Below are positions 1-18,476 of a stretch of DNA of 64,000 bases, in pieces. The position numbers and the translations under genes were made by a program. Source of the stretch: a virus (lineage: Duplodnaviria; Caudoviricetes); the IMG/VR virus record IMGVR_UViG_3300020577_008668, positions 15,616 through 79,615 of that record; one strand, given 5' to 3'. Numbering within the stretch: the stretch's first letter is position 1; each line of letters begins with the position of its first letter. Under the pieces are notes generated by a model. The model had not been told where the DNA came from. It saw only the letters and a program-made list of their open reading frames with translations, and ran no database searches.

Positions 1-26
1 ACGCTGTAGAGTGGAATTTTGATGTT

Positions 27-278
27 ATGTCGGATAATGAAGAAGTTATAGAAAAAGTAATGAATGGTGAGCTTTCTGATGAGGGAGCTATCAAGTCTGG
101 TTTGGCGAATCTTCACATGTCAGTGCTTGCAAGGATTGGGGATGTGGCATGGTCTGATCGTGTCCTGAATCCTGAGGTTTGCCAGGAGCGCCGGGAGTTT
201 GACTTGATCGTTCCTGAGGCTAAGGATGTTGATTTAGATGAGATTCGTCGTGAAATGGATGAGTGGAAGGACAAATGA
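27..278 (+). CDS. hypothetical protein
   Basis: 83-aa ORF; stop overlaps the next ATG (ATGA at 275-278). Confidence 0.55.
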   Translation: MSDNEEVIEKVMNGELSDEGAIKSGLANLHMSVLARIGDVAWSDRVLNPEVCQERREFDLIVPEAKDVDLDEIRREMDEWKDK

Positions 279-939
279 GACCGACCGCCGAACAGATGGG
301 GCGAATGAACTGGGCTGTGCGTCCGTCTGCAACCAATCGAACCGAAAGAGATCAACCATGGTCCGACCATCCCGACTGCGCTTCCCCTGTCATCGGTGAC
401 TTTCTCCGCTCATGGAACGACGGTCTCGACGGTGACACCCGGCAGCAGTTGAAGCGGTACATTCCCCGCCTGGTCGGCTCGAAGGGCACTACAGCGCAGG
501 AAGATCATCGAGCGTGGATGGCGGTCGACTGGTACAGGCCCCGGCGTGGTTGCGTCTGGCTGGGATGGTCGATCAAGCGAATCTGCTCGCCGGGTTGGAC
601 GTAGTCTCTGTTGAGACGTATGTGTCGATTGAACCGACGTTGCGGGCGGTACGACGCTACGCTGTGACTACTTCGTCCGCTGTAGTGGACGAAGTCGTGG
701 ACGCTGCTTCGGACGCTGCTGTCTCCGCTGCTGTACCTGCTGCTTTGAATGCCGCTTCGTCCGCTGGAGTGCCCGCTGCTCGGAATGCTGCAACGGTCGC
801 TGCTTTGGACGCTGCTTGTTTCGCTACCGTGTCCGCTGGTGAGTCACCGTCCGCTTTGCAACCCACCGTGATCGAACTGCAAGCATCCGCCCATGATCTT
901 ATTGACCGAATGTTTGCCGTCACCGAGGCCGCAGCGTGA
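275..939 (+). pseudogene. frameshifted, N-terminally chimeric paralogue of the 2153-2968 Ala-repeat gene
   Basis: 354-396 is identical to 2262-2304 and 491-523 is identical to 2399-2431. An 8-nt segment (tacaggcc, ~533-540) replaces 18 nt of the intact copy, splitting the gene into ORFs 263-604 and 514-939. The C-terminus QPTVIELQASAHDLIDRMFAVTE matches APTVTELQTSAHDLIDRMLAVTE. Confidence 0.8.
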
Positions 940-992
940 CCCGCCCCGTTCTCTACATCGCCGGTCACCCCACATGCGGAGTCGACCGATGA
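936..992 (+). pseudogene. truncated gene start MTRPVLYIAG (copy 1)
   Basis: 936-964 matches 2968-2996 (2 mismatches after the first base); the frame stops after 18 aa. Confidence 0.6.
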
Positions 993-1171
993 CCGCCTAC
1001 CTGATCCCCGAAATCTGGTGCGACAACTGTGGGACAAGAGCTCAAGCAGACGACGAGTGCACGACACGGGGCCTGCGTCAGCACTTGAGCGAGGACCGAG
1101 AATGGGTGCGTCGCCGAATCTCCGGGGAACTACATGACATCTGCGGACGTTGCGTCGAGGGCGACCAATGA
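989..1171 (+). CDS. small Cys-rich putative Zn-binding protein
   Basis: ATG overlaps the upstream stop; WCDNC...W...DICGRC pattern; high-GC codons. Confidence 0.65.
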   Translation: MTAYLIPEIWCDNCGTRAQADDECTTRGLRQHLSEDREWVRRRISGELHDICGRCVEGDQ

Positions 1172-1419
1172 GCGTTGAGCAACGCACCGCCGTCCGTATC
1201 ACCTGCGACGCACACCGTTGCCCTGCCACATGCCCACCCGTCGGACACGGTCCCGAATGGTGGGTGCAGAACGACCAGGCGGAATCGGAAGCGATCGCTG
1301 AGATGGTCGCAACCGGGTCCGGGTGGCAGGTGCAACCTCTCGGCCCGTGGTCGGTGCTACATTTCTGCCCCGATCATTCATCACACATCAATGACCAAGA
1401 AGAAGGAGAACAGTTATGA
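1168..1419 (+). CDS. small Cys/His putative Zn-binding protein
   Basis: ITCDAHRC...GW...HFCPDH; ATGA overlaps at both ends. Confidence 0.65.
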   Translation: MSVEQRTAVRITCDAHRCPATCPPVGHGPEWWVQNDQAESEAIAEMVATGSGWQVQPLGPWSVLHFCPDHSSHINDQEEGEQL

Positions 1420-1724
1420 CCGAGTCAATCATGGTGGACGGCGTCAAGTTCGTCCCGGAGGCCGTCACGTCAAGCGGGGTGCGCATCGTTGTCTTGCAAC
1501 GGGGCTGGGTCGTCGTCGGCGCCTACTCCGAGGATGGCGACGAGGTGCTGGTGACATCGGCGAAGGTGATCCGCCGCTGGGGGACCACCCAGGGGATCGG
1601 GGAACTGGTTGATGGTCCGACCAAGGACACTGTGTTGGATCTGGCTGGGACGGTGCGGGCGCACCGGTTGGGCGTGTTGTTCACGCTGGATTGTGATGGC
1701 GATGCCTGGCGGGATCACCTGTGA
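1416..1724 (+). CDS. conserved phage protein (DUF6948-like by recall)
   Basis: RIVVLQRGWVVVG...AKVIRRWGTTQGIGEL; RBS gaaggaga upstream; followed by a GYG-repeat ORF as is typical of this family. Confidence 0.7.
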   Translation: MTESIMVDGVKFVPEAVTSSGVRIVVLQRGWVVVGAYSEDGDEVLVTSAKVIRRWGTTQGIGELVDGPTKDTVLDLAGTVRAHRLGVLFTLDCDGDAWRDHL

Positions 1725-1963
1725 TGGTGGCCGTGATGTCGTTCGGTGAGGACGCTCACGCTGCTATCGGCATCGGCTACGGCCACGGCTACGGCTACGG
1801 CACCGGCTACGGTGACGGCTACGGCGACGGCTACGGCCGCGGGGATGGCTACGGCTACGGCCACGGCTACGGCTACGGCACCGGCTACGGTGACGGCTAC
1901 GGCTACGGCTACGGCCACGGCTACGGCTACGGCTACGGCTACGGCTCCGGTTGCGGGTGGTGA
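1721..1963 (+). CDS. Gly-Tyr repeat (GYGDGYG) low-complexity protein
   Basis: 80-aa ORF, mostly GY/GD/GH dipeptides; coupled to the upstream gene. Confidence 0.65.
   Translation: MMVAVMSFGEDAHAAIGIGYGHGYGYGTGYGDGYGDGYGRGDGYGYGHGYGYGTGYGDGYGYGYGHGYGYGYGYGSGCGW
1775..1945 (+). repeat. tandem ggctac-based hexamer repeat
   Basis: direct reading; encodes (GY)n. Confidence 0.95.
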
Positions 1964-2115
1964 CCGTGATGTTGTTCGGTGAGGACGCTCACGCTGCTAT
2001 CGGCATCGGTGATGGCTACGGCTACGGCTACGGTGATGTCGCTCCGAGAAACCAACCCATGACCGCACCTGTGTTCCAACATTTCTGCCCCGACTATCAC
2101 ACCGAGGAACCCTGA
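1960..2115 (+). pseudogene. chimeric fragment: shortened GYG gene fused to a copy of the 1168-1419 C-terminus
   Basis: 1974-2009 is identical to 1741-1776 (36 nt); 2079-2093 is identical to 1359-1373 (acatttctgccccga, HFCPD). Confidence 0.65.
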
Positions 2116-2152
2116 TGACTGACCGACCTTTGTCCCCGAAGGAGAACGATAA

Positions 2153-2968
2153 GTGACCACCCGAACTCTTGATCTTGACACGCTTGTCCTCGCCGTTGGA
2201 GCCCATTCAGCGACGAAAGACGACATGTGTGTCATGGAGGCTGTAGCGTTCATCGCTGGCGAACCATGGTCCGACCATCCCGACTGCGCTTCCCCTGTCA
2301 TCGGAGCGTTCCTCCGCACCTGGAACGACTCACTTCCCGACGCCGACCGTCAGACGTTGAAGCAGTACATCCCGCGCCTCGTCGGCTCGAAGGGCACCAC
2401 AGCGCAGGAAGATCATCGAGCGTGGATGGCGTTGGATTGGTTGGTGCGGGTGCACACTCCGGCGTGGTTGCGGTTGGCGGGTTTGGTCGATCAGGCGGAT
2501 CTGCTCGCTGGTCTCGCTGAGGTGGATGCGGGGACGTGTCCGTCGATCAAGCCGATGTTGGAAGCGGTGCGCATGGACGCTGCCGCCGCTTGGGCCGTCG
2601 TTCGGGCCGTCGCTTGGGCCGTCGCTCGGGACGCCGCTCGGGATGCCGCTTGGGACGCCGCTCGGGACGCCGCTCGGGACGCCGCTCGGGACGCCGCTCG
2701 GGATGCCGCTTGGGACGCCGCTGGGGACGCCGCTTGGGCCGTCGCTGGGGATGCCGCTCGGGGCGCCGCTCGGGGCGCCGCTCGGGATGCCGCTGGGGCC
2801 GTCGCTTGGGCCGTCGCTGGGGATGCCGCTCGGGGCGCCGCTCGGGATGCCGCTCGGGACGCCGCTCGGGATGCCGCTCGGGACGCCCTCGCTCCCACCG
2901 TGACCGAACTCCAAACCTCAGCGCATGACCTCATCGACCGGATGCTCGCCGTCACCGAAACAGCATAA
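2153..2968 (+). CDS. actinophage protein with (DAAR/DAAW)n repeat, function unknown
   Basis: intact 271-aa ORF with RBS gaaggaga; MCVMEAVAFIAGEPWSDHPDCASPVI N-domain plus Ala-rich repeat. Confidence 0.8.
   Translation: MTTRTLDLDTLVLAVGAHSATKDDMCVMEAVAFIAGEPWSDHPDCASPVIGAFLRTWNDSLPDADRQTLKQYIPRLVGSKGTTAQEDHRAWMALDWLVRVHTPAWLRLAGLVDQADLLAGLAEVDAGTCPSIKPMLEAVRMDAAAAWAVVRAVAWAVARDAARDAAWDAARDAARDAARDAARDAAWDAAGDAAWAVAGDAARGAARGAARDAAGAVAWAVAGDAARGAARDAARDAARDAARDALAPTVTELQTSAHDLIDRMLAVTETA
2575..2886 (+). repeat. 12-nt tandem coding repeat (gacgccgctcgg variants)
   Basis: direct reading; in-frame 4-aa units. Confidence 0.95.
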
Positions 2969-3081
2969 TGACCCGCCCTGTCCTCTACATCGCCGGGCCG
3001 TACACCGCGCCGGACCCATCACAACGTGCACAAGGCGGTGATGTTCGCTTCCCACTCAATGGGGAATTATGGTCTAGGTAA
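2968..3081 (+). pseudogene. truncated/frameshifted gene start MTRPVLYIAGPYTAPDP (copy 2; DUF4406/nucleoside deoxyribosyltransferase-like start)
   Basis: YIAGPY motif; the continuation HNVHKAVMFA lies in another frame; sequence turns AT-richer at ~3050. Confidence 0.55.
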
Positions 3082-3090
3082 CAAAAGCGG

Positions 3091-3480
3091 ATGTTATCAT
3101 CCGCTATGGATTTTGACGGGGTTACCCTAACTTGCACACTAGAAACTTGGACTCCAGAAATTTTTTTTAGTAACAGGAAGAAGTGCTATCAACAAGTGAA
3201 ACAGTCTAGGGAAATTTTTGACCATCTACCTCACGACAATAAAGAGGCAGTCCTCGATATGATTAAGCGAGCCCTTTTTCTAGCGGCGGACGAAGTTGAG
3301 CTATGGGTTCCTTCAGCTTTTTCATCCGATAGGATTTCGGATACTTTAGTTGTTCAGTTGAAACTTTCAGCATCTCAAGTCGATGCAGCTATTGCTGATC
3401 GGAAAAAATACACATCTAAACGACTAGCTGAGATAATTGCTGAAGTAGAAGCTGACTTAGACGAGTTTGATGTTTCATGA
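3091..3480 (+). CDS. hypothetical protein
   Basis: 129-aa ORF with ATGA overlap to the resolvase; true start may be 3106. Confidence 0.7.
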   Translation: MLSSAMDFDGVTLTCTLETWTPEIFFSNRKKCYQQVKQSREIFDHLPHDNKEAVLDMIKRALFLAADEVELWVPSAFSSDRISDTLVVQLKLSASQVDAAIADRKKYTSKRLAEIIAEVEADLDEFDVS

Positions 3481-3869
3481 AACCCTCAACGGCTAAGGCG
3501 AAAGGGCGTGAATGTGAAAAGGCTTGGGTTAATTTCCTGAAAGAGAATGGTGTTCCTAACGCCGAACGACGACGACTCAACGGAGTCGAGGATCGTGGAG
3601 ACATTTCGGGCTGGAATTCATCGGAGGCTCAGGAACATGGTGGATGGCGGATTTGTTCCGAGGTGAAATCGGGTGGAGTAATTAAAACAGCTGAATGGTT
3701 GAGAGAGCTAAAGGCAGAGATCACAAACGATAATTCTGACTCTGGTCATATCGTTGTGCGTCCCAAGGGGAAGCCTCGGGTTGAGGATTGGTTCGTGATC
3801 ATGGACGTTCTCGGCTTTATGGATTTAATGAGTCGAGCCGGTTTCATCCCATGGCAGCCAGATGATTGA
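3477..3869 (+). CDS. Holliday junction resolvase (PD-(D/E)XK, actinophage type)
   Basis: AKAKGRECEK...AERRRLNGVEDRGDI...EVK motif. Confidence 0.8.
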   Translation: MKPSTAKAKGRECEKAWVNFLKENGVPNAERRRLNGVEDRGDISGWNSSEAQEHGGWRICSEVKSGGVIKTAEWLRELKAEITNDNSDSGHIVVRPKGKPRVEDWFVIMDVLGFMDLMSRAGFIPWQPDD

Positions 3870-4095
3870 CGCATTTGGTCAGGAGCTTTATGAGGGTGAT
3901 AAAGTTGTAGCAATTGCTACTATGAAATCTACGCAGACCTTGTATAAGGGAACTGTCGTAGGTTTTTCTGGTTCTTGTGTTAATGTGAGAATGGATGAGA
4001 TGTCTAACTGTGATACTTTTTGGTTTGATATCTATCAGCCTGAACAGGGAGAAGAAAAGCGCATCTGCGTGTCTCATAGATTGGCAAAGATATGA
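3862..4095 (+). CDS. hypothetical protein (SH3-like pattern)
   Basis: IDAFGQELYEGDKVV...YKGTVVGF. Confidence 0.65.
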   Translation: MIDAFGQELYEGDKVVAIATMKSTQTLYKGTVVGFSGSCVNVRMDEMSNCDTFWFDIYQPEQGEEKRICVSHRLAKI

Positions 4096-4811
4096 AGCTC
4101 GTTGTAGGGTGTCCTGTGTCAAATCGGAACTGGATTCTTCCTGAGTGGAATCAGCATGTTCTTTCATCTGTGTTTGATCTGGTAGAGAGAGATAGTAGAG
4201 ACTGGGACCTAGAGTACGCTTTTGTTGTTCCATCTGGAGACACTGAAACGCTTTCTGTTTTATCTTCTTTTGATACCTCCACCTTTACTTTGACGAGAGA
4301 TGAGCCTGAAGTTGCTGTTCGTCGTCGTTGGGGGCCTGATCGTTATCAGAATATGGTAGAATCAAGAAATGCTCTTTTGGGGCTTGTTAGGGAACTTTCT
4401 CCTGATTTTTTCCTTTCACTGGATTCAGATATTCTTTTGCATCCTACTGCCATTTCAAAAGCTTTAGAATTATTCAGGGATGGGGTTTGGGCAGTAGGAT
4501 TAGCAACGTACTTAACTCCCCGAGGGAATACTGTTCCTAATATGGGAAGTTGGTTGGATCAATCCTATATTAGATACTCTCGAAAAGATTACCCTGAAGC
4601 TACAACCTGTGATATTCTGATGGCAGCTAAGTTAATGAAACCTGAAGCATACCAAGTCGATTACGAGTATCACCGCTCAGGAGAAGACTTGGGTTGGTCT
4701 AGGGCTCTGAAAAGGGCAGGTGGTAAAGTTATGTGGGATGGTAGGGTGAAGAATAAGCATGTGATGGAGCCTGAGCATCTCTCTCAGGTAGATGAGAGGG
4801 TCGGGTTCTGA
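4092..4811 (+). CDS. GT-A fold glycosyltransferase
   Basis: KLVVGCPV start, RNALL, FFLSLDSDILL (DxD), late GEDLGW. Confidence 0.8.
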   Translation: MKLVVGCPVSNRNWILPEWNQHVLSSVFDLVERDSRDWDLEYAFVVPSGDTETLSVLSSFDTSTFTLTRDEPEVAVRRRWGPDRYQNMVESRNALLGLVRELSPDFFLSLDSDILLHPTAISKALELFRDGVWAVGLATYLTPRGNTVPNMGSWLDQSYIRYSRKDYPEATTCDILMAAKLMKPEAYQVDYEYHRSGEDLGWSRALKRAGGKVMWDGRVKNKHVMEPEHLSQVDERVGF

Positions 4812-12040: not shown

Positions 12041-12715
12041 ATGCCAGCTAAGAAAAATCCAGAGTTTGATATCGCTGATCTAATTGAAGACAGCTCTTCT
12101 CTACAAGAGGCTCCTGTTTACGTGGAGGGGCCATCAGGGTCCAGGTATCAGGTGCTTAACCAGTTTGAGGCTGATCACTACAAGTCTTTATCTGAAAGAT
12201 ATCAGGAAGATAACGTTCTAGAGAATGTTTCTGATGTCCAGGAACTCGATCGTATTCTCATGATGGAACTGATGATGTACCGCTGGGGGCTTTGGTTGAT
12301 CCAAGAGAAAGACTATGATGATAAGAGGGTTAATCCTTCTGAGTTGCAAAAAAGCATCTCTTCTTACTCTAAGGAGATTCGTGAGATCAAAAAAGATCTA
12401 GGAATGGATAAGAGCACCAGGGATAAGGATCAAGGTGAATCCCTATCGGGTTACATTCAGAACCTTTTGAGAAGGGCTGAGGAATTTGGTATTTCTCGTA
12501 ATGATCAGGCGGTTGAGGCGATTAATACGCTCATGGAGCTGAGGGGGTACATTACCCTTTACCGAAATTCAAATGATGCTGAACGCAAAGAATTTCACGT
12601 CACATTAGAAGAGATCATTCAGTGGTGCGAAAAGAGTTTCGAAAAATTTGATGAGATTGATGCGGCCTTGAGAGAAAATCAAAAATACTGGATTCACGAC
12701 ATTTCTAAGGTGTGA
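12041..12715 (+). CDS. putative terminase small subunit
   Basis: helical protein two genes upstream of TerL; assignment is positional only. Confidence 0.4.
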   Translation: MPAKKNPEFDIADLIEDSSSLQEAPVYVEGPSGSRYQVLNQFEADHYKSLSERYQEDNVLENVSDVQELDRILMMELMMYRWGLWLIQEKDYDDKRVNPSELQKSISSYSKEIREIKKDLGMDKSTRDKDQGESLSGYIQNLLRRAEEFGISRNDQAVEAINTLMELRGYITLYRNSNDAERKEFHVTLEEIIQWCEKSFEKFDEIDAALRENQKYWIHDISKV

Positions 12716-12719
12716 CGAT

Positions 12720-13250
12720 ATGGCAACACGGAAAAGTTGGGATGATAAATTTGAGGAAATCGCTAAAGAATTTCCCTTGGTTAGAAGGTTTAATTGGGAA
12801 ACAGCTATTCTGAATGATTCAGATTTATTTACTACCTTGCTGGCTGATGTTATAAAGTCCGGGCGTAAGTTAAAAAAACCGGGGAAACGCCCAAGTTTGT
12901 CACGTAAGGACTCTGAGGAGAAATTAAGTCAGCTTGCTGCTGAGGACTTTAGTGAGTTAGAGTTCAAAGATGCTTTCATTGCTCTTTCTTCTAATCGAAG
13001 TATCCGGCACACTGCTAGTAAGACTGGGTTAGATAGAAATATTGTTTACGGCTTATTGAATGGAACCCGACTTCCTTCATTCAGGGAGATGGAGCAAATT
13101 GCTTCTTCGTTCGGGAAAGACCCAAGTTTCTTTTTGGAGTATAGGATTGGGTTTGTTCTTTCTAAAATGAATCAGTTTCTTTTTTCCTCGCCGGAAACAG
13201 CGGCATTTTGGTACAAGAACTTTAAGTCTGATGTGATTACGATTTCATAA
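12720..13250 (+). CDS. XRE-type helix-turn-helix protein
   Basis: SIRHTASKTGLDRNIVYGLLNGTRLPSFREMEQIASSFG. Confidence 0.75.
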   Translation: MATRKSWDDKFEEIAKEFPLVRRFNWETAILNDSDLFTTLLADVIKSGRKLKKPGKRPSLSRKDSEEKLSQLAAEDFSELEFKDAFIALSSNRSIRHTASKTGLDRNIVYGLLNGTRLPSFREMEQIASSFGKDPSFFLEYRIGFVLSKMNQFLFSSPETAAFWYKNFKSDVITIS

Positions 13251-13262
13251 GAGGACGGGTTT

Positions 13263-15329
13263 ATGAGCAAGGTTTTGACTAACTTAACCGAACAGGAACG
13301 GTACTTGGTATCACTGCTCACTGATCGTTCAGGGATAGATCAGTTTGAGTTCATGATTTATGACCCAGCTTTCCGAGAAAATGACGGGCTTTTTAGGGCT
13401 TGGCCTTTTCAGTATCACTGGTTCCGATGTAAGGACCCTTTGGTCATTAGCCAGGGTAGTCGAAGTGCTGGGAAGAGTCAGTCGGCTGTGCTGTCGGCTT
13501 TAGCTTTCCCGTTCACTTATCCTGGACAAGAGATGGTTATTACAGCCCCAGAGTCTGTTCATTTGCAGGCTTTAACTGATAAGATCGAAACAATGTTTGT
13601 GAACAACAGGCTTCCTAGGGACATGCTGGTTAGGGGAGCTGCGGGTATTAAGCATAAGCCTTTTTTGTGTAATTTCAAAAATGGGGCCAGGATCATGGGG
13701 CGGATTCCTCAAAGAGATGGTCGTGGAATGAAGGGTTGCCCTAAGGCCGATACTCCTATTCTGACAGATGCTGGAATTAAGAGAGCTGATGAGGTTCTTG
13801 TTGGAGATAGGGTGGTTAATCATCGGTTGGAGTGGGCTGATGTCACTCAGGTGATTCATGATACGAATACATGCTATGAGGTAACTGATATTGAAGGAAA
13901 CTCTATCACTGTTTCTTGGGAGCATCGTTTTTACGGAGCAGCCAAGGAGGCTTCTGGGTTTTCTGAAATGTACTTTGAGGAAGTAGATTATCTTTTAGAA
14001 GATAATTTTTTTTGGGCTATCCCGGTTGGTGAGTATGAGGGCGACCAAGTTCATGAGGAACGGAATGGGTATTTTCTTGTAGAAGTTGTTTCTGTAAGAG
14101 ATGTTGGTGTTCAGTCTATTACTAATATTATTGTTAAAGATGGGCATAGTGTTCTTACGGGAAACATCATGTCTCACAATGTCCATCCAACAGTTCTTCT
14201 ACTTGATGAGGGACAGGACTATAGTCAGCAGGGTTTCGAGGAGCTTATCGAAACAGTTCTTCAGGGAGTAGAGGGAGCCCAGTGGAAGGTGTTTGGGGTA
14301 ACTCGCGGTGTTCGGGATAAGTTCTATGAGTACACTCATTCTGAGGCTTGGACAGTGTTTCGTCTTCCTGCCATGTTTCGTCCTACGTGGAATGATGCGG
14401 AACGGGCTTTGAAAGAAAGCCAGTATGGTAAACCAGATTCACCTGGCTACCGCAGAAACGTTCTTGGCTTACACGGGGACCAAAATTCGAGCATTTTTGT
14501 CCTGTCGCGATTGATGGCCTGTTGTGACACAAGTCACTCCAGCTTTTACAATGAAAATGAATACTGGAATATCGAATTCGATGATTCTGACGTTGAGGAA
14601 GCTGGTGACATCATTAGTCTAATTGATCCACCAGGCACTCACGCTAAGTATAAGAACTTTTGGATTGGGTCTGACATTGGATGGACTTTAGCCCCGACAG
14701 TGATTGTTATTTTTGCGGAAATTGCAGAAAAAGGGAAGGAACCCTCACTGAAACTATTGGGTCGGATCACTATGCGTCGAATTAAGACGATTGATCAGGC
14801 AGACGTTTTTATACACCTTATCAATACGTATAGACCTTTGGCTTTTGCTATGGACTCTACCGGGGCGGGGTTTCCTCTTCTAGAACTGATCCAGGAAAAG
14901 GCTAGAACTCATGATGAGCTATATAGCGTTGTGGAAAGGATTAAGGGCTATAATTTTAGCGAGAAGGTTGTAGCCGAGTTTGATGATACAGTGGAAATTG
15001 ACGAGGATGATCCTGAGGGATACAAGAGGGCTGAGATTAGAAAGCCAGTTCTAGTTTGGGCTACCGATGTGCTTAGGATGCTTGTTGATGAAAAGAGACT
15101 TATCCTTCCGTGGGATAAGGAGCTTATTGGTGAGTTTCAGGGTCAAACTGTTACTTATGCAAAGGATGCGTTAGATCCATATGGGCGAAAAAGACTCTAC
15201 TCATTTGGTTACTTCCACTCGTTGGATGCATGTCGAATGGCTGCTTTGGCTTTTAAGCAGAACGCTATCGAACAGTTTATTAAGAATCAGGAAGATAGTT
15301 GGGAGGCCCCGTCAGCTATCTTCTTGTAA
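13263..15329 (+). CDS. terL: terminase large subunit with Hint-domain insertion
   Basis: Walker A-like SRSAGKS, Walker B LLLDEGQ, nuclease GSDIG and HSLDA; upstream of portal. Confidence 0.92.
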   Translation: MSKVLTNLTEQERYLVSLLTDRSGIDQFEFMIYDPAFRENDGLFRAWPFQYHWFRCKDPLVISQGSRSAGKSQSAVLSALAFPFTYPGQEMVITAPESVHLQALTDKIETMFVNNRLPRDMLVRGAAGIKHKPFLCNFKNGARIMGRIPQRDGRGMKGCPKADTPILTDAGIKRADEVLVGDRVVNHRLEWADVTQVIHDTNTCYEVTDIEGNSITVSWEHRFYGAAKEASGFSEMYFEEVDYLLEDNFFWAIPVGEYEGDQVHEERNGYFLVEVVSVRDVGVQSITNIIVKDGHSVLTGNIMSHNVHPTVLLLDEGQDYSQQGFEELIETVLQGVEGAQWKVFGVTRGVRDKFYEYTHSEAWTVFRLPAMFRPTWNDAERALKESQYGKPDSPGYRRNVLGLHGDQNSSIFVLSRLMACCDTSHSSFYNENEYWNIEFDDSDVEEAGDIISLIDPPGTHAKYKNFWIGSDIGWTLAPTVIVIFAEIAEKGKEPSLKLLGRITMRRIKTIDQADVFIHLINTYRPLAFAMDSTGAGFPLLELIQEKARTHDELYSVVERIKGYNFSEKVVAEFDDTVEIDEDDPEGYKRAEIRKPVLVWATDVLRMLVDEKRLILPWDKELIGEFQGQTVTYAKDALDPYGRKRLYSFGYFHSLDACRMAALAFKQNAIEQFIKNQEDSWEAPSAIFL
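13737..14180 (+). mobile_element. 148-aa mini-intein/BIL-like Hint domain, no homing endonuclease, +1 residue Val
   Basis: begins CPKADTPILT, block B ITVSWEH, ends VLTGNIMSHN, followed by gtc (Val). Confidence 0.88.
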
Positions 15330-15590: not shown

Positions 15591-15884
15591 ATGGCTCCTG
15601 ACGACCCTATTAAAGTCTGGCGCGAAGAACTCGTAGGTTATCTAGAGGATTACTATAGTTACAGGGAGTTAGATCAACCTGCGGAGATACTTAAAAGACT
15701 TTCTGCTTACTCAGCTAGAGCCAGGTATATGCGTAACGTCTGTATTAGGTCAGGTAATAAGATCGCTTCTTCCTTTAGACTGGAAGAGATTGATCCTTTC
15801 TTGAACGAAACCGAATTCCAGTTCAAAATATGGTCAAGGGTTGCTTCCATTAGCAGCCAAGAGTGGGAGATGTCGAGAGGGTGA
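15591..15884 (+). CDS. hypothetical protein between terminase and portal
   Basis: 97-aa ORF with RBS gaaagg. Confidence 0.75.
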   Translation: MAPDDPIKVWREELVGYLEDYYSYRELDQPAEILKRLSAYSARARYMRNVCIRSGNKIASSFRLEEIDPFLNETEFQFKIWSRVASISSQEWEMSRG

Positions 15885-15890
15885 CGTATT

Positions 15891-17612
15891 GTGATTGAAG
15901 AAGAGTACGATTCTGAATTAGGTTCTGTTCTGGTTGTCAATGAATCTGGATTACCTGATGACGTGGTTCTTAGCGAGGTAAGGTCTCAAGTAAGGTCCCC
16001 TGAGATAGCTTCTTTAAGTCGGTGGACTATTGAGAACACAGGGTATAACAGAACAAATAATTCAAACATCTTCAATCGTGATCGTTACGTAATTCCTCGT
16101 GGGCTTTTTGATAAGTTCCGTATGGCCGCTGATGCTGCCCGTGCTGATGATGTTGTTGCTGGGGTTTGCGAGACGACTGAGCAATTGGCTTTTAAGCGCA
16201 TCGTCGTTGAGTGTGATGACGATCAGCAGTATGATATTTGGAATCAGATATCTGAAGACCTTGACACCCCTCAGAGAATGAGGGAAATTTGGCGAGAAAT
16301 TTTCACCATTAATCAGTGCTACCCCGCCTTGCTGTGGACTAGAAAAACTTACAAGGTTAGAGGGAAAGCTTCAGGTGGACGGAAGTCAAAGAAGGAATTC
16401 AAAGACGTTATCGTCCCTCGCGGCATCACTTTACTTGATCCTTGTAAGGTGGTTCCCTTGGGGGACCTTATGTTCGGTAATGAAAAATTGGTTTACTTGG
16501 CTTCTTCTTCTGAAGCTGAGGCTTTTGACCGGGTGATTGCCGGGGCGAACACTTCTGACCTTGTTGTTACTCAGCTTATTGTGGGTAGGTATGAGCCTAC
16601 AAGAAAAGAGAAGTCGCTCATTCAGGAGCTAACAGGTGACAGTATCGCTTCAGACACCTACCTTCTTGATCCTGATAAAGTTTGGCGGATAACGTCAACT
16701 AGGCCAGATTATCAGCGATTTGCTGATGTGCGGATGGAATCCGTTTTTGAGCTTCTGGATATGAAGCATCAGCTTCGAGCAATGGACCGCATGTCCCTTC
16801 TGGCTTCTACAAATGCCATTATTCTCGTAAAGAAGGGCTCTGACGATAAGCCTGCCAAGCAGCAGGAATTGGACCTTCTACAAACCCAAATCGGTGGGAC
16901 TTCTCGTCAGCCGATCATCATCTCAGATCATCGTATTGAGATTGAGATCATTACCCCTAAGCTAGATAAGACTTTGGCCCCTGAGCGTTACAATGGGATT
17001 GATTCACGTATCTCAGCTCGGCTTTACCAGCTTTTAACGACCGGTAATTATAGTGCTGGGACGGCGGCAGATAACTCTTTGAAACTTTTCCAAGTCATCT
17101 CTGCGTCCATGGAGGCCCGTAGGGACTCTATTCGGGACAGTATCTTTAAGCATGTCTTTAAGAAAATTCAGGAGAAGAACGATCATCTCTTTACCGAAGA
17201 TGTGAAGTTGCAGTTTTATCCTCGTCGTATTGCTTTGGCTTTTGATCCGAACCTGGCTACTTTCATGATGGACCTGAGAGACGCAAATGACCTTTCTAGG
17301 GACACCATGTTGCAAGAGTTGGATATTTCAGAAGAAGACGAAGCCATTAAGGTTGAGCGGGAAAATGAACGGTTCAATAAGATATTTGACCAACCTGCGT
17401 TAGATAGGCAAGCGGCTCAGCTTGAACTTCAGCAAATGTCGTCTCCTTCAGATCAACCCGCTCAGCCGACTTTAGAGGACCCAAATTCACCAAAGGGAGC
17501 TACTCCGCGAGTGGGAGGTAGACGTGGGGGTGGTAGAAAGAATGGGGGAGGAATGAATCGCGACTCTCAAAGGTCGAATCCTCCCCGTGGTGAACAAAAG
17601 GAAACTAATTAA
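15891..17612 (+). CDS. portal protein
   Basis: 573 aa, position after TerL, acidic/basic disordered C-terminus. Confidence 0.75.
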   Translation: MIEEEYDSELGSVLVVNESGLPDDVVLSEVRSQVRSPEIASLSRWTIENTGYNRTNNSNIFNRDRYVIPRGLFDKFRMAADAARADDVVAGVCETTEQLAFKRIVVECDDDQQYDIWNQISEDLDTPQRMREIWREIFTINQCYPALLWTRKTYKVRGKASGGRKSKKEFKDVIVPRGITLLDPCKVVPLGDLMFGNEKLVYLASSSEAEAFDRVIAGANTSDLVVTQLIVGRYEPTRKEKSLIQELTGDSIASDTYLLDPDKVWRITSTRPDYQRFADVRMESVFELLDMKHQLRAMDRMSLLASTNAIILVKKGSDDKPAKQQELDLLQTQIGGTSRQPIIISDHRIEIEIITPKLDKTLAPERYNGIDSRISARLYQLLTTGNYSAGTAADNSLKLFQVISASMEARRDSIRDSIFKHVFKKIQEKNDHLFTEDVKLQFYPRRIALAFDPNLATFMMDLRDANDLSRDTMLQELDISEEDEAIKVERENERFNKIFDQPALDRQAAQLELQQMSSPSDQPAQPTLEDPNSPKGATPRVGGRRGGGRKNGGGMNRDSQRSNPPRGEQKETN

Positions 17613-17613
17613 G

Positions 17614-17619
17614 CCGTTA
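17614..17619 (+). promoter_or_regulatory. CCGTTA motif, putative late promoter element (also 18514, 20934, 21598, 27958, 59549)
   Basis: recurs in short intergenic gaps ahead of structural genes; GTTCCGTTAA identical at 18511 and 20931. Confidence 0.45.
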
Positions 17620-17639
17620 GCTTTTTTGGAGGTTATTCT

Positions 17640-18476
17640 ATGTCTATAATGTTAGAGACAGATAGTACAGTTTTTTTTGCTGGAATAGCCTCTCTCTTTG
17701 ATGACGAACGTGATGTTGCATCTGATTGGGCTGGTCAGCACATCAAGACCAATAAGTACATAAAGTGGGTTATCGGTAAGTACGTTGAGGCTGACAAAGT
17801 TAACAACAATGGTCAGTATTGGACTTTGAAAGACCTTCAGAATAAGCACACTACTGTAGACCATACGCCTATGAACATGGGGCATCGTCCTCATGACATT
17901 GTTGGTACAGTTGTCGCTTCTGAAATGATTTATCCTGATCGTTCGGACATGAATCCATACGTAGAAACTGTTGCCGCTTTTTGGAAGTGGTATCGACCTG
18001 AGGAATTGAAAAAGCTAGAAGAAGCTTATAGCACAGGGAATGCTTGGCAGTCGATGGAAGCAGTGTCCGACACTGTGACGTGCGTCGGTCCTGAAGGTTG
18101 TGGTGAAACCTTTGATTATGCTGGCCCTAATTCTGACACGTATTGTTCTTGCATTCAGAATCATCGTGGGCATAAGCAGTTAGACAATCCTCATTTTCTT
18201 GGATCAGGGTTGATTATTCCACCTGATCGTCCTGGTTGGTCTAACGCTGATATTAATAGCATTGCACGTCATACGACGGATGAGCAGAAGCATGAGATGC
18301 TTGTCGCTATTGCTGACGCCGCTCCTCACTTAAGCTCCTCTGAGTGGGAAAAGGTGATGTGGACTTTGCAGTTTGAAGCTTTTTCTAACGAGAATGCCGT
18401 TGTTGAATCTAAGAAAACATCTAGCGAGATTGCCCAGGTTGTAGCTAGTCAATTCCTAGCATCATCTAGGTACTAA
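17640..18476 (+). CDS. putative capsid maturation protease
   Basis: NNNGQYW, PMNMGH, SMEA, FLGSGLIIPP motifs; between portal and scaffold. Confidence 0.6.
   Translation: MSIMLETDSTVFFAGIASLFDDERDVASDWAGQHIKTNKYIKWVIGKYVEADKVNNNGQYWTLKDLQNKHTTVDHTPMNMGHRPHDIVGTVVASEMIYPDRSDMNPYVETVAAFWKWYRPEELKKLEEAYSTGNAWQSMEAVSDTVTCVGPEGCGETFDYAGPNSDTYCSCIQNHRGHKQLDNPHFLGSGLIIPPDRPGWSNADINSIARHTTDEQKHEMLVAIADAAPHLSSSEWEKVMWTLQFEAFSNENAVVESKKTSSEIAQVVASQFLASSRY

Follow-up and report, generated by a model that had tools for sequence, protein, structure and literature searches.

To our knowledge, all intein classes described so far need a Cys, Ser or Thr as first residue of the C-extein (position +1). This +1 rule defines inteins, guides genome searches and restricts the scar-free placement of engineered inteins. 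The locus considered here, a gene for the large terminase subunit (TerL) of a tailed phage lying in a 64-kb stretch of viral DNA (64,000 nucleotides, hereafter the window), raises the question of how an essential enzyme may be matured when the intein that interrupts it is followed by Val. From the sequences compared below, maturation of this enzyme probably follows a route that has yet to be reported for mobile inteins, since two thirds of the relatives carrying an intein at the same site are likewise devoid of a +1 nucleophile.

The terminase gene and its inserted Hint domain

The identity of the host protein was established from both sequence and structure (see Table 1 for coordinates). In a tblastn search the open reading frame retrieves a gene of Caudovirales GX15bay annotated as terminase large subunit, and the AlphaFold2 model of its product matches the TerL of T4 (gp17, E 2e-12), HK97, D6E and Sf6; matches to PHROG terminases are weak. 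The features by which a TerL is recognised, namely an ASCE ATPase with Walker A and Walker B motifs and a C-terminal RNase H-like nuclease fold, are present; in alignment A1, residues R67, S68, G70, K71 and S72 of Walker A and D315 and E316 of Walker B are nearly invariant, and G153, G155, K157 and G158 form invariant columns near the end of the N-extein. All family-invariant TerL residues are found in the product, whose frame is uninterrupted, and the window as a whole is dense in coding sequence, its structural genes being intact. The 79.6-kb virus record, a linear metagenomic contig about 67% complete, has no other match to TerL, and no second terminase gene was found in it; the genes next to this one gave nothing significant against PHROGs. 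The relatives discussed below are all metagenomic, no cultured phage or isolate having been found among them; as to their hosts, some contigs were binned to MAGs of Saccharibacteria, Nocardioides and Rhodothermales, a hint only.

Table 1. Features of the TerL precursor gene, in window coordinates
Feature	Position	Strand	Description
TerL precursor gene	13263-15329	+	688 aa, stop codon 15327-15329; uninterrupted single ORF
N-extein	13263-13736	+	aa 1-158, 18.0 kDa; ends in family-invariant Lys157-Gly158
Walker A P-loop GSRSAGKS	13455-13478	+	aa 65-72; read from sequence
Mini-intein (Hint domain, no endonuclease)	13737-14180	+	aa 159-306, 148 aa, 16.7 kDa; boundaries from intein-free homologues
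Cys159, intein residue 1 (tgc), nucleophile of the N-S acyl shift	13737-13739	+	from sequence; Cys in 46/48 and Ser in 2/48 relatives without +1 nucleophile
Cys204, internal cysteine	13872-13874	+	Cys in 45/48 inteins with non-nucleophilic +1 versus 6/22 with Thr/Ser +1
Block B Ser218-Trp-Glu-His221 (SxxH form of TxxH)	13914-13925	+	from sequence
Asn288, block F position usually Asp in class 1 inteins	14124-14126	+	opposite gp41-1 Asp107 (phmmer alignment)
Block F His295-Ser296	14145-14150	+	alignment A2: S296 invariant, H295 97% conserved
Block G Ser304-His305-Asn306 (tct cac aat)	14172-14180	+	from sequence; Asn306 is the cyclising residue
Val307 (gtc), +1 residue without side-chain nucleophile	14181-14183	+	from sequence
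C-extein	14181-15326	+	aa 307-688, 43.8 kDa; His308-Pro309, Walker B, remaining ATPase, nuclease domain
Walker B strand TVLLLDE	14190-14210	+	Asp315-Glu316 at 14205-14210; read from sequence

The frame reads ...GRGMKG/CPKADTPILT...ITVSWEH...SITNIIV...IMSHN/VHPTVLLLDE, where slashes mark the junctions and tct cac aat gtc occupies 14172-14183, while intein-free homologues read ...G.KG/xHP..L..DE; the insertion site is one residue past the invariant Lys157-Gly158 and eight residues ahead of the Walker B Asp-Glu. Its boundaries are independent of the choice of alignment, since near-identical extein pairs differ solely by the C...HN insert. The AlphaFold2 model of residues 149-317 (pLDDT 87, pTM 0.82) displays a Hint fold, which in Foldseek comes closest to the Ssp DnaB mini-intein (E 3e-9), gp41-1 and NpuDnaB (E 3e-9 to 4e-8); canonical inteins occupy ranks 1-8, Tetrahymena BIL2 rank 9 and the C. 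thermocellum BIL domain 2lwy rank 31, all with probability 1.0. Searched against Pfam, the intein sequence remains below threshold (Hom_end_hint E 0.08, Hint_2 E 0.17). Among inteins it is most closely related to P0001 (148 aa), to P0109 (210 aa) and to full-length ones of about 345 aa whose +1 residue is Ile; P0147, a relative retrieved with phmmer, consists of Hint domains arrayed in tandem with HN/K junctions.

The catalytic residues are conserved throughout the relatives without a +1 nucleophile: Ser218 and His221 are found in 48/48 (His221 being invariant also in alignment A2), as is the His-Asn end, preceded by Ser in 46/48, and residue 288 is Asn in 37/48 and Asp in 10/48. The terminal Asn is invariant both in alignment A2 (36/36) and among the inteins at this site, site b (70/70). 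As for the internal Cys204, we infer from the hairpin of the model that it lies across the strand from residue 219 of block B. A Hint fold, Cys1, the SxxH of block B, the terminal His-Asn, an in-frame insertion at a conserved site and an endonuclease in its relatives are features that the element shares with inteins; the Cys, Ser or Thr with which the C-extein begins in classes 1-3 (PMC4031507) is replaced by Val307.

An earlier note on this DNA, made from the letters alone, had already described most of this anatomy. It had recognised a TerL interrupted ahead of Walker B, with which the structural matches and the intact GSRSAGKS and LLLDE motifs agree; it had listed as retained Cys1, the block B His and the terminal His-Asn, which are indeed Cys159, His221 and His305-Asn306, and had seen an Asn for the block F Asp, borne out by Asn288 opposite Asp107 of gp41-1; and the lack of an endonuclease is confirmed by a length of 148 aa and an all-beta structure. 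Of the limits that it gave, 13737-14183, the start is right, and the end takes in the +1 codon and belongs at 14180. Its main contention, that canonical class 1-3 splicing cannot occur, holds, since no Cys, Ser or Thr follows the terminal Asn, the other catalytic residues being kept.

The +1 residue in alleles and homologues

A protein identical to this TerL is encoded on 28 contigs (JGI, Logan, ENA), and a second allele with Val307 on at least 20 further contigs. The latter, represented by P0163 and P0164 in Logan and ENA, is about 21% diverged within the intein, differing at 30-32 of 148 intein residues versus about 33 of 540 extein residues, and keeps C159, S218, H221, N288, H295, S296, H305, N306 and Val307. 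Scans of viral and metagenome contigs retrieved none of its DNA; constraint on the intein was assessed at the protein level, by asking whether substitutions avoid conserved positions; in the second allele, 1 of 32 substitutions falls on a family-conserved intein position, versus 6.1 expected (P = 0.005). Recoding or sequencing error at +1 was rejected, because six codons (ATC, ATT, GTC, CTC, ATG and CAG) occupy this position across site-b loci with and without an intein and many independent contigs are concordant; a Val (GTT) stands at +1 also in related intein-free TerLs (L002-L004, L085-L087). On the strength of these sequences, the Val +1 state of the terminase intein is real and stable, neither a one-off nor an error.

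Other ways of recovering a nucleophile were considered and rejected as well. A shift of the boundary is precluded by the intein-free alleles, which fix the C...HN insert, and taking Ser304 as +1 would make Met, Val or Ile the final residue of the intein. A nucleophile further downstream might be sought in the Thr that the window protein has at +4, but most relatives read xHPIWLELDE, without any. A class 3 mechanism is at variance with the presence of Cys159 and with Asn288, rather than Cys, at F:4, the hydroxyl residue Ser304 at G:5 being the sole resemblance to the Trp-Cys-Thr motif of that class.

In 45 of the 67 distinct homologues with an intein at exactly this TerL site, the +1 residue is Ile, Val, Leu, Met or Gln, so that the window intein, which the earlier note had taken as a single oddity, is one member of a large lineage. 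All of the inteins at this site without a +1 nucleophile begin with Cys or Ser and finish with His-Asn, and most of those with Ile, Val, Leu, Met or Gln at +1 carry a LAGLIDADG endonuclease (relatives of about 335-355 aa have precomputed PF14528 and PF05204 matches); mini-inteins without endonuclease and without nucleophile occur in at least three lineages, with their catalytic residues kept. Insertion sites having been mapped by local domain coordinates, at least 12 other sites in these proteins were seen to be occupied by inteins, and there the +1 residue is without exception Cys, Ser or Thr; loss of the nucleophile is seen in two intein clades and at this one site only. As a caution about special chemistry, a loss limited to one site could reflect tolerance of a break by the host protein.

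Aligning intein-free with intein-bearing homologues, as had been proposed in the earlier note, returns an exact C...HN insert and three extein pairs that are 99.6% (P0007/P0040), 98.7% (P0006/P0016) and 95.6% (P0065/L084) identical, in which the intein is the sole difference and Ile is at +1 in both members; by sequence, the intein appears to have moved recently into Ile alleles. The extein tree implies about 33 events of gain or loss of the intein, and the lineage is indifferent to its +1 residue, which mirrors that of the intein-free alleles (Thr, Ile, Met, Leu, Val, Gln, Ser). As judged from these comparisons, the window intein belongs to a large lineage that has been mobile recently, in which most members bear an endonuclease and the +1 residue mirrors the host allele. 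No difference in the frequency of Cys1 and Ser1 between +1 classes reached significance (P = 0.07). A clade-specific signature of the nucleophile-less state was also sought: several positions differ between the clades, but they are absent in the subclade with Met or Gln at +1 (L034, L078, P0144), and none of them can therefore be required.

Some relatives are encoded by two genes. Two loci, L074 and L068, have the break precisely at the intein site, the stop codon of gene 1 overlapping the ATG of gene 2 (TGATG); gene 1 carries the whole Hint domain minus its Asn, with the block F His changed to Phe and the block B His kept, and gene 2 is the C-extein starting at the +1 Met. Canonical trans-splicing is impossible in this arrangement, since the Hint domain is on gene 1 and gene 2 begins directly from the +1 Met; as read from the two genes, it would yield the same C-extein with a free amine in the absence of any Asn. 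P0149 and P0150 likewise terminate right after the Hint domain, and in P0149 the endonuclease is gone.

Routes by which the terminase may be matured

The interpretation that we tentatively prefer, giving it almost an even chance of being correct, is that the insert is a functional, actively selected mini-intein which has lost its endonuclease and belongs to a lineage that processes itself without a side-chain nucleophile at +1, the exteins being ligated by the attack of an amine. Its chemical steps are modelled throughout on those of type-A BIL domains, which ligate by attack of an amine on the thioester following Asn cyclisation (PMC4031507). Cys159 would attack the carbonyl of Gly158 to give a thioester (N-S acyl shift), aided by Ser218 and His221 of block B. 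Asn306 would then form a succinimide with no need of a prior branched intermediate, freeing the C-extein with the alpha-amine of Val307; such an uncoupled cyclisation may be favoured by the Ser-His-Asn end and by an Asn, residue 288, where block F usually has Asp. In gp41-1, Asp107 limits C-terminal cleavage, and the SxxH and T/SHN motifs, combined with loss of the block F Asp, lead to rapid C-cleavage whatever the +1 residue; the THN/SHN motif by itself is also linked to such cleavage (PMC12245125). Finally, the amine of Val307, which the Hint active site and the folded ATPase core would keep beside the thioester, would attack the latter, the outcome being a normal Gly158-Val307 peptide bond. 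A precursor of 78.5 kDa would be expected to give a TerL of 61.8 kDa and a free intein of 16.7 kDa; the computed tryptic junction peptide of the ligated TerL is GVHPTVLLLDEGQ...AQWK, with an average mass of 4114.5 Da. The few members of the lineage that begin with Ser would form an oxyester, a poorer substrate for aminolysis.

The main rival, on balance less likely, is that the terminase works as two chains, hydrolysis or thiolysis of the thioester at Cys159, together with cyclisation of Asn306, excising the Hint domain without religation, and the resulting fragments of 18 kDa (Walker A) and 44 kDa (Walker B and nuclease) associating non-covalently as the active enzyme. This would need exactly the two junction chemistries that are conserved, and BIL domains mainly cleave, their cleavage products exceeding the ligation products (PMC4031507, PMC7664689). 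Loss of the nucleophile at one of at least 13 sites, and in two clades, is what tolerance on the host side predicts. Moreover, the separate C-extein gene of L074/L068 and the genes of P0149/P0150, which end after the Hint domain, indicate that a chain discontinuous at this site is encoded in nature; these split-gene relatives fit a two-chain terminase and ligation by amine attack equally well. The break, however, would fall inside the ATPase beta-sheet, directly ahead of the Walker B strand and next to the invariant Lys157-Gly158, and in each of the 140 homologues that lack an intein at this position the chain runs on unbroken, no split gene devoid of a Hint domain being found among the homologues surveyed. 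The split loci, in turn, retain the Hint domain with its block B His, in P0149 despite loss of the endonuclease; co-assembly of the chains would not by itself require this, although N-cleavage would also explain it. Moreover, a thioester that shares an active site with a newly released amine would be expected to ligate readily.

A third possibility, which we regard as improbable, retains the final attack by the Val307 amine but has the acyl group pass first, in lieu of the branched intermediate, to some residue outside position +1, candidates being His308 of the extein (as an acyl-imidazole) and Cys204. A His is present at +2 in every TerL of the family, and the Gly at -1 is invariant; but His308-Pro309 is equally invariant in intein-free TerLs and is therefore a feature of the terminase. 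Class 3 inteins are known to use a relay through an internal Cys (PMC2807308), and one involving C143 of Hedgehog is reported (PMC12054796). The association of Cys204 with a non-nucleophilic +1 (Table 1), together with its loss in some main-clade members having Thr or Ser at +1 (P0066-68, P0111), would suit such a role; the association nevertheless largely tracks phylogeny, and the subclade with Met or Gln at +1 lacks both Cys204 and a +1 nucleophile.

Even less can be said for a Hint domain that is never removed, the TerL functioning, or being regulated, with a permanent insert of 148 aa as a domesticated switch. The N and C termini of the Hint domain are adjacent, so the host fold need not be disrupted, and AlphaFold2 depicts the ATPase core with the Hint domain as an excursion, pLDDT being 80-94 around it. 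Yet Cys/Ser1, the His residues of blocks B and F and the His-Asn end would all be superfluous, and they are kept in 48/48 or 47/48 relatives without a +1 nucleophile, the three mini-intein lineages included. Most relatives carry an endonuclease-bearing domain of about 345 aa at this spot, alongside which there exist intein-free alleles of 99.6% identity; in the split-gene relatives the chain is broken here; and the site is one residue past the invariant Lys-Gly and eight ahead of the Asp-Glu of Walker B. Last, an error in the +1 codon, or an intein decaying in a defective phage with a non-working terminase, might be suspected of a linear, incomplete metagenomic record without an isolate, but is close to refuted by the recurrence of the same Val in both alleles, by the variety of +1 codons and by the open frame, complete set of family-invariant residues and intact structural genes.

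Among the three outcomes that the earlier note had offered, non-canonical splicing and a two-chain terminase are consequently the leading ones, while the domesticated switch is disfavoured by catalytic retention in 48/48 relatives without a +1 nucleophile and by the separate C-extein gene that starts from +1 in related phages. The two findings which that note had set out as fatal to its view were not made: no Ser, Thr or Cys codon is seen at +1, the 28 contigs being identical and the second allele having Val too, and the densely coding window with its structural genes is not that of a defective phage.

Comparison with known systems and significance

The closest chemical precedent is the type-A BIL domain of C. 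thermocellum (PDB 2lwy; work of Amitai 2003, Dassa 2004 and Aranko 2013, as summarised in PMC4031507). The terminase element has in common with type-A BILs the Hint fold, the N-terminal Cys, the C-terminal His-Asn and the absence of a +1 nucleophile, and the mechanism proposed for it is their chemistry, that is, thioester formation and Asn cyclisation followed by alpha-amine attack. BILs, however, are found in variable regions of bacterial, often secreted, proteins, have neither a homing endonuclease nor intein-free allelic pairs, and mostly cleave, whereas the terminase element occupies an invariant motif of an essential phage ATPase and has intein-free alleles, mostly LAGLIDADG-bearing relatives and an apparently recent mobility; in Foldseek rank, canonical mini-inteins also come ahead of 2lwy, although all of these matches have a probability of 1.0.

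Among solved inteins, gp41-1 (PDB 6qaz, class 1) is the best sequence match and a top structural one; it shares with the terminase intein Cys1, the SxxH of block B, the block F His and the Thr/Ser-His-Asn end, and it too sits at a catalytic motif of a phage ATPase. Class 1 inteins need Cys, Ser or Thr at +1 for the branched intermediate, whereas the terminase intein has Val there and Asn for the block F Asp. Inteins are likewise found in the TerL ATPase domain of mycobacteriophages, at multiple sites including the P-loop and Walker B (Kelley et al. 2016, PMC5050341); in the accessible text of that paper splicing is argued to be necessary for assembly, the inteins tested spliced efficiently and a missing +1 nucleophile is not mentioned. 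The TerL family considered here is a different one, with at least 13 insertion sites. Genes parted at the intein site recall the split inteins and fractured genes of Dassa et al. 2009, as cited in the bioRxiv preprint 10.1101/2025.01.02.630785; in a split intein, the C-terminal piece of the intein precedes the C-extein, whereas in L074/L068 the Hint domain minus its Asn is entirely on gene 1. Our search of the literature, which is incomplete in coverage and no proof of absence, found no report of endonuclease-bearing inteins without a +1 nucleophile; in a 2025 preprint on actinobacteriophages, the term "non-canonical" refers to endonuclease architecture only.

We would further suggest, with somewhat less than even confidence, that this TerL site may host a fourth mechanistic kind of mobile intein, endonuclease-bearing and ligating by means of the freed alpha-amine, which would include the two-gene variants in which the Hint domain of gene 1 joins the N-extein to a separate C-extein starting from the +1 Met. 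If a mobile intein lineage does mature an essential enzyme beside Val, Ile, Leu, Met or Gln, the +1 rule is not universal; this would explain how inteins invade sites devoid of a nucleophile, and would offer a starting point for truly traceless tools of protein ligation or cleavage. Should the terminase instead act as two chains, it would represent a new way to build a viral packaging motor and would clearly illustrate how an essential enzyme can be remodelled by a selfish element.

The large terminase and its intein

The 688-aa protein encoded by ORF 13263-15329 is a large terminase (TerL): it carries a Walker A (GSRSAGKS) and a Walker B (LLLDE) motif, it shares 41.5% identity with a protein of Caudovirales GX15bay annotated as terminase large subunit, and its AlphaFold2 model (pLDDT 84) matches the large terminases of T4 (gp17), HK97, D6E and Sf6. 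The window, which is the final 64 kb of the record, is densely coding on a single strand; a glycosyltransferase block and two small genes precede the TerL gene, while large structural genes follow it, one of them a tape-measure-like ORF of 2755 aa. No further TerL gene was found in the 79.6-kb IMG/VR record, which is linear and about 67% complete by CheckV, and none of the genes flanking TerL matches a PHROG at E ≤ 0.001; the phage stands very far from those already catalogued. Among bacterial genome bins, the closest TerL relatives come from contigs that have been assigned to MAGs of Saccharibacteria and Actinomycetota (L095 and L098 from a Candidatus Saccharibacteria MAG, L096 from a Nocardioides MAG), assignments that give a weak hint of the host range of the phage group; the intein of L095 occupies the same site as that of the window, with Thr at +1.

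Features of the TerL region, in window coordinates
Feature	Position	Strand	Description
Mini-intein proper	nt 13737-14180	+	148-aa insert between invariant Lys157-Gly158 and His308-Pro309
Intein ends	Cys159 first; Ser304-His305-Asn306 last	+	from sequence
+1 codon	directly after Asn306	+	gtc, Val307; from sequence
Cys204	13872-13874		kept in 45/48 inteins without a +1 nucleophile and in 6/22 with Thr or Ser at +1
Residue 219	13917-13919		Trp in the window, Cys in most relatives
TerL-flanking genes	12041-13250 and 15591-18476		include the presumed small terminase region and the 573-aa ORF in portal position

The earlier note had placed the element at 13737-14183; the start is right, the end takes in the +1 codon. 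Pfam Hint families score under their cut-off, a weak signal from the sequence alone, and among inteins of solved structure gp41-1 comes closest in sequence (E 0.39). By its predicted structure the element is clearly an intein: the model of residues 149-317 (pLDDT 87, pTM 0.82) adopts an all-beta Hint fold that matches many inteins at E 1e-9 to 1e-7, among them the Ssp DnaB mini-intein, gp41-1 and NpuDnaB, with bacterial intein-like (BIL) and Hedgehog Hint domains lower in the ranking. The endonuclease domain is absent, and every residue invariant or nearly so in 36 same-site inteins is present, namely the block A Thr, the Ser-x-x-His of block B, the His-Ser of block F and the His-Asn of block G; Asn288 aligns with Asp107 of gp41-1, which bears out the earlier reading of a block F Asn in place of Asp. 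Cys204 and residue 219 are probably cross-strand neighbours beside the block B His, as placed by a hairpin in the model, and could act as a redox pair or an acyl relay.

The +1 residue at this site and elsewhere in the family

The analysis drew on metagenomic sequences and predicted structures throughout. Homologues came from a search of 5.8 billion proteins (551 TerL homologues, the best 120 of which were used), from a full HMMER scan in which the query was the mini-intein by itself (37 further proteins, nearly all TerLs) and from IMG/VR (80 loci with DNA). Intein-free forms, of about 540 aa, share the pattern ...G.KG|xHP..L..DE, where x is T, I, M, L, V, Q or S. Good coverage was available for 208 distinct sequences among the matches listed; the site is empty in 140 (T42, I35, M23, L16, V13, Q7, S4) and holds an intein in 67, with I29, T21, V7, L5, M2, Q2 and S1 at +1, so that the nucleophile is missing in 45 of the 67. 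A slightly wider set comprises 70 same-site inteins; the 48 of these that lack the nucleophile have His-Asn at the end without exception, and the first residue is Cys in 46 and Ser in 2. In the DNA, this position is encoded, over loci with and without an intein, by ATC, ATT, GTC, CTC, ATG and CAG. A missing nucleophile is, among these inteins, the rule at this site and not an exception. One same-site intein (P0008, locus L006) has Ser first and ends His-Lys-Asn|Thr, Lys replacing the penultimate His.

An internal control is provided by at least 12 other intein positions in the TerL family (P-loop, after Walker B, WR|C, HR|C and others), at which every readable junction has Cys, Ser or Thr at +1; related inteins in other host proteins likewise have a canonical +1. 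The family is an extreme intein hot spot, with at least 13 distinct sites among homologues P0001-P0157 (for example P0126, 1861 aa; P0127, 1887 aa; P0136, 1585 aa) and up to four or five inteins in single TerLs. Inteins at the P-loop site GK|A...PTHN|S (P0130, P0138, P0139, P0149, L023, L051) and at DK|MQP...THN|T (P0025, P0132, P0135) begin with Ala or Met instead of Cys or Ser and end in Thr-His-Asn, features that recall class 3 or class 2 inteins; at VG|C...TGN|T and EY|C...TGN|S, Gly replaces the penultimate His. A distant relative of the terminase intein by score, P0147 (1104 aa), strings together at least four Hint domains in tandem, linked as ...VHN|KG|C..., with Lys after each, in a BIL-like array.

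Mobility and descent

Same-site inteins, among the matches listed, are mostly about 335-355 aa long with LAGLIDADG Pfam hits. Apart from an insert of 347 aa (C...SHN), proteins P0007 (896 aa) and P0040 (549 aa) share 99.6% identity, and Ile follows the site in both, a pattern repeated in P0006/P0016 (98.7%) and P0065/L084 (95.6%), which argues for recent gain or loss where the native residue is Ile. In FastTree trees with midpoint roots, the +1 residue goes with the host allele: in 30 of 67 intein-bearing genes it equals that of the nearest intein-free relative on the extein tree, where chance would give 15. Two clades are seen for the Hint parts: one mostly with Thr at +1 and a nested Met/Gln subclade (L034, L078, P0144), the other ending ...SGSIMSHN, with Ile, Val, Leu or Met at +1 and a few scattered Thr. 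The window's mini-intein lies in the second, adjoining P0109 (210 aa) and inteins of full length that are followed by Ile, and so appears to derive by deletion from a mobile intein already devoid of the nucleophile.

The window's TerL occurs letter for letter on 28 contigs (JGI, Logan, ENA). About 20 more carry a second allele, which has 30-32 differences over the 148 intein residues and about 33 over the 540 of the extein and keeps C159, S218, H221, N288, H295, S296, H305, N306 and Val307. Of 32 substitutions, a single one hits a position with conservation of 85% or more, where 6.1 would be expected (P = 0.005), so the mini-intein is still constrained after endonuclease loss. Two other, independent mini-intein lineages with Ile at +1 (P0139, P0154) also keep Cys1 and the His-Asn end.

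Possible routes to a functional terminase

To judge from the residues retained, canonical steps 1 (Cys1 acyl shift) and 3 (Asn cyclisation) are clearly selected; steps 2 and 4 depend on the +1 side chain and so cannot take place. For type-A BIL domains the published sequence of events is thioester formation, Asn cyclisation and attack on the thioester by the alpha-amine thus freed (PMC4031507). In gp41-1, fast C-terminal cleavage with any +1 residue tolerated has been tied by experiment to an SxxH block B, a hydroxyl residue ahead of His-Asn and release from the block F Asp, which otherwise restrains Asn cyclisation (PMC12245125); among the 48 nucleophile-less inteins, Ser218 is found in 48, Ser304 in 46 and Asn instead of Asp at 288 in 37. 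On the strength of this precedent and these features, aminolytic ligation is the reading tentatively favoured: the Cys1 acyl shift would give a thioester at the N-terminal junction, Asn cyclisation would free an alpha-amine on the C-extein, and its attack on the thioester would ligate the exteins.

In two relatives, L074 (positions 3-4705; IMG/VR 3300009506_000927) and L068 (1-2171; 3300005557_000021), the TerL gene is divided at the C-terminal junction of the intein, in a manner unlike that of a classical split intein. Gene 1 encodes the N-extein and a Hint/LAGLIDADG domain lacking the terminal Asn, runs 13 residues past the penultimate His (H-R/K-G-S-...) and stops in an overlap with the ATG of gene 2 (TGATG), to which it is translationally coupled; gene 2 opens with Met-His-Pro-Lys-Lys-Leu-Glu-Met-Asp-Glu, the C-extein from +1. 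The block B His is kept in both and Ser1 is present (L074), and in both the block F His, an aid to Asn cyclisation, is replaced by Phe. The mini Hint domain protein P0149, and P0150, have the same kind of end as gene 1.

These split genes fit equally well a two-chain terminase remaining after double cleavage, the main rival, which would also explain why the nucleophile is lost at this one site only, and which we consider rather unlikely. It is improbable that a relay runs through His308 or through Cys204, the residue associated with the clade; a permanent insert, being at odds with the conservation pattern, is very improbable, and an artefact, given replication over many contigs, extremely so.

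Under aminolytic ligation, the element would resemble a type-A BIL in its mode of working, and differ from one in context, namely a conserved site of an essential enzyme, endonuclease-bearing relatives and intein-free alleles; it has every defining feature of an intein except the +1 nucleophile, splicing itself being predicted. The TerL inteins tested in one survey are reported as canonical and efficiently splicing (PMC5050341), and another survey (2025 actinobacteriophage preprint) describes unusual endonuclease layouts; a full-text literature search, of incomplete coverage, found no description of mobile inteins without a +1 nucleophile. The division of the gene at a +1 Met suggests that in some phages translation initiation, not Asn cyclisation, provides the free-amine C-extein, and the N-terminal chemistry of the Hint domain appears to be still under selection in the split-gene phages.
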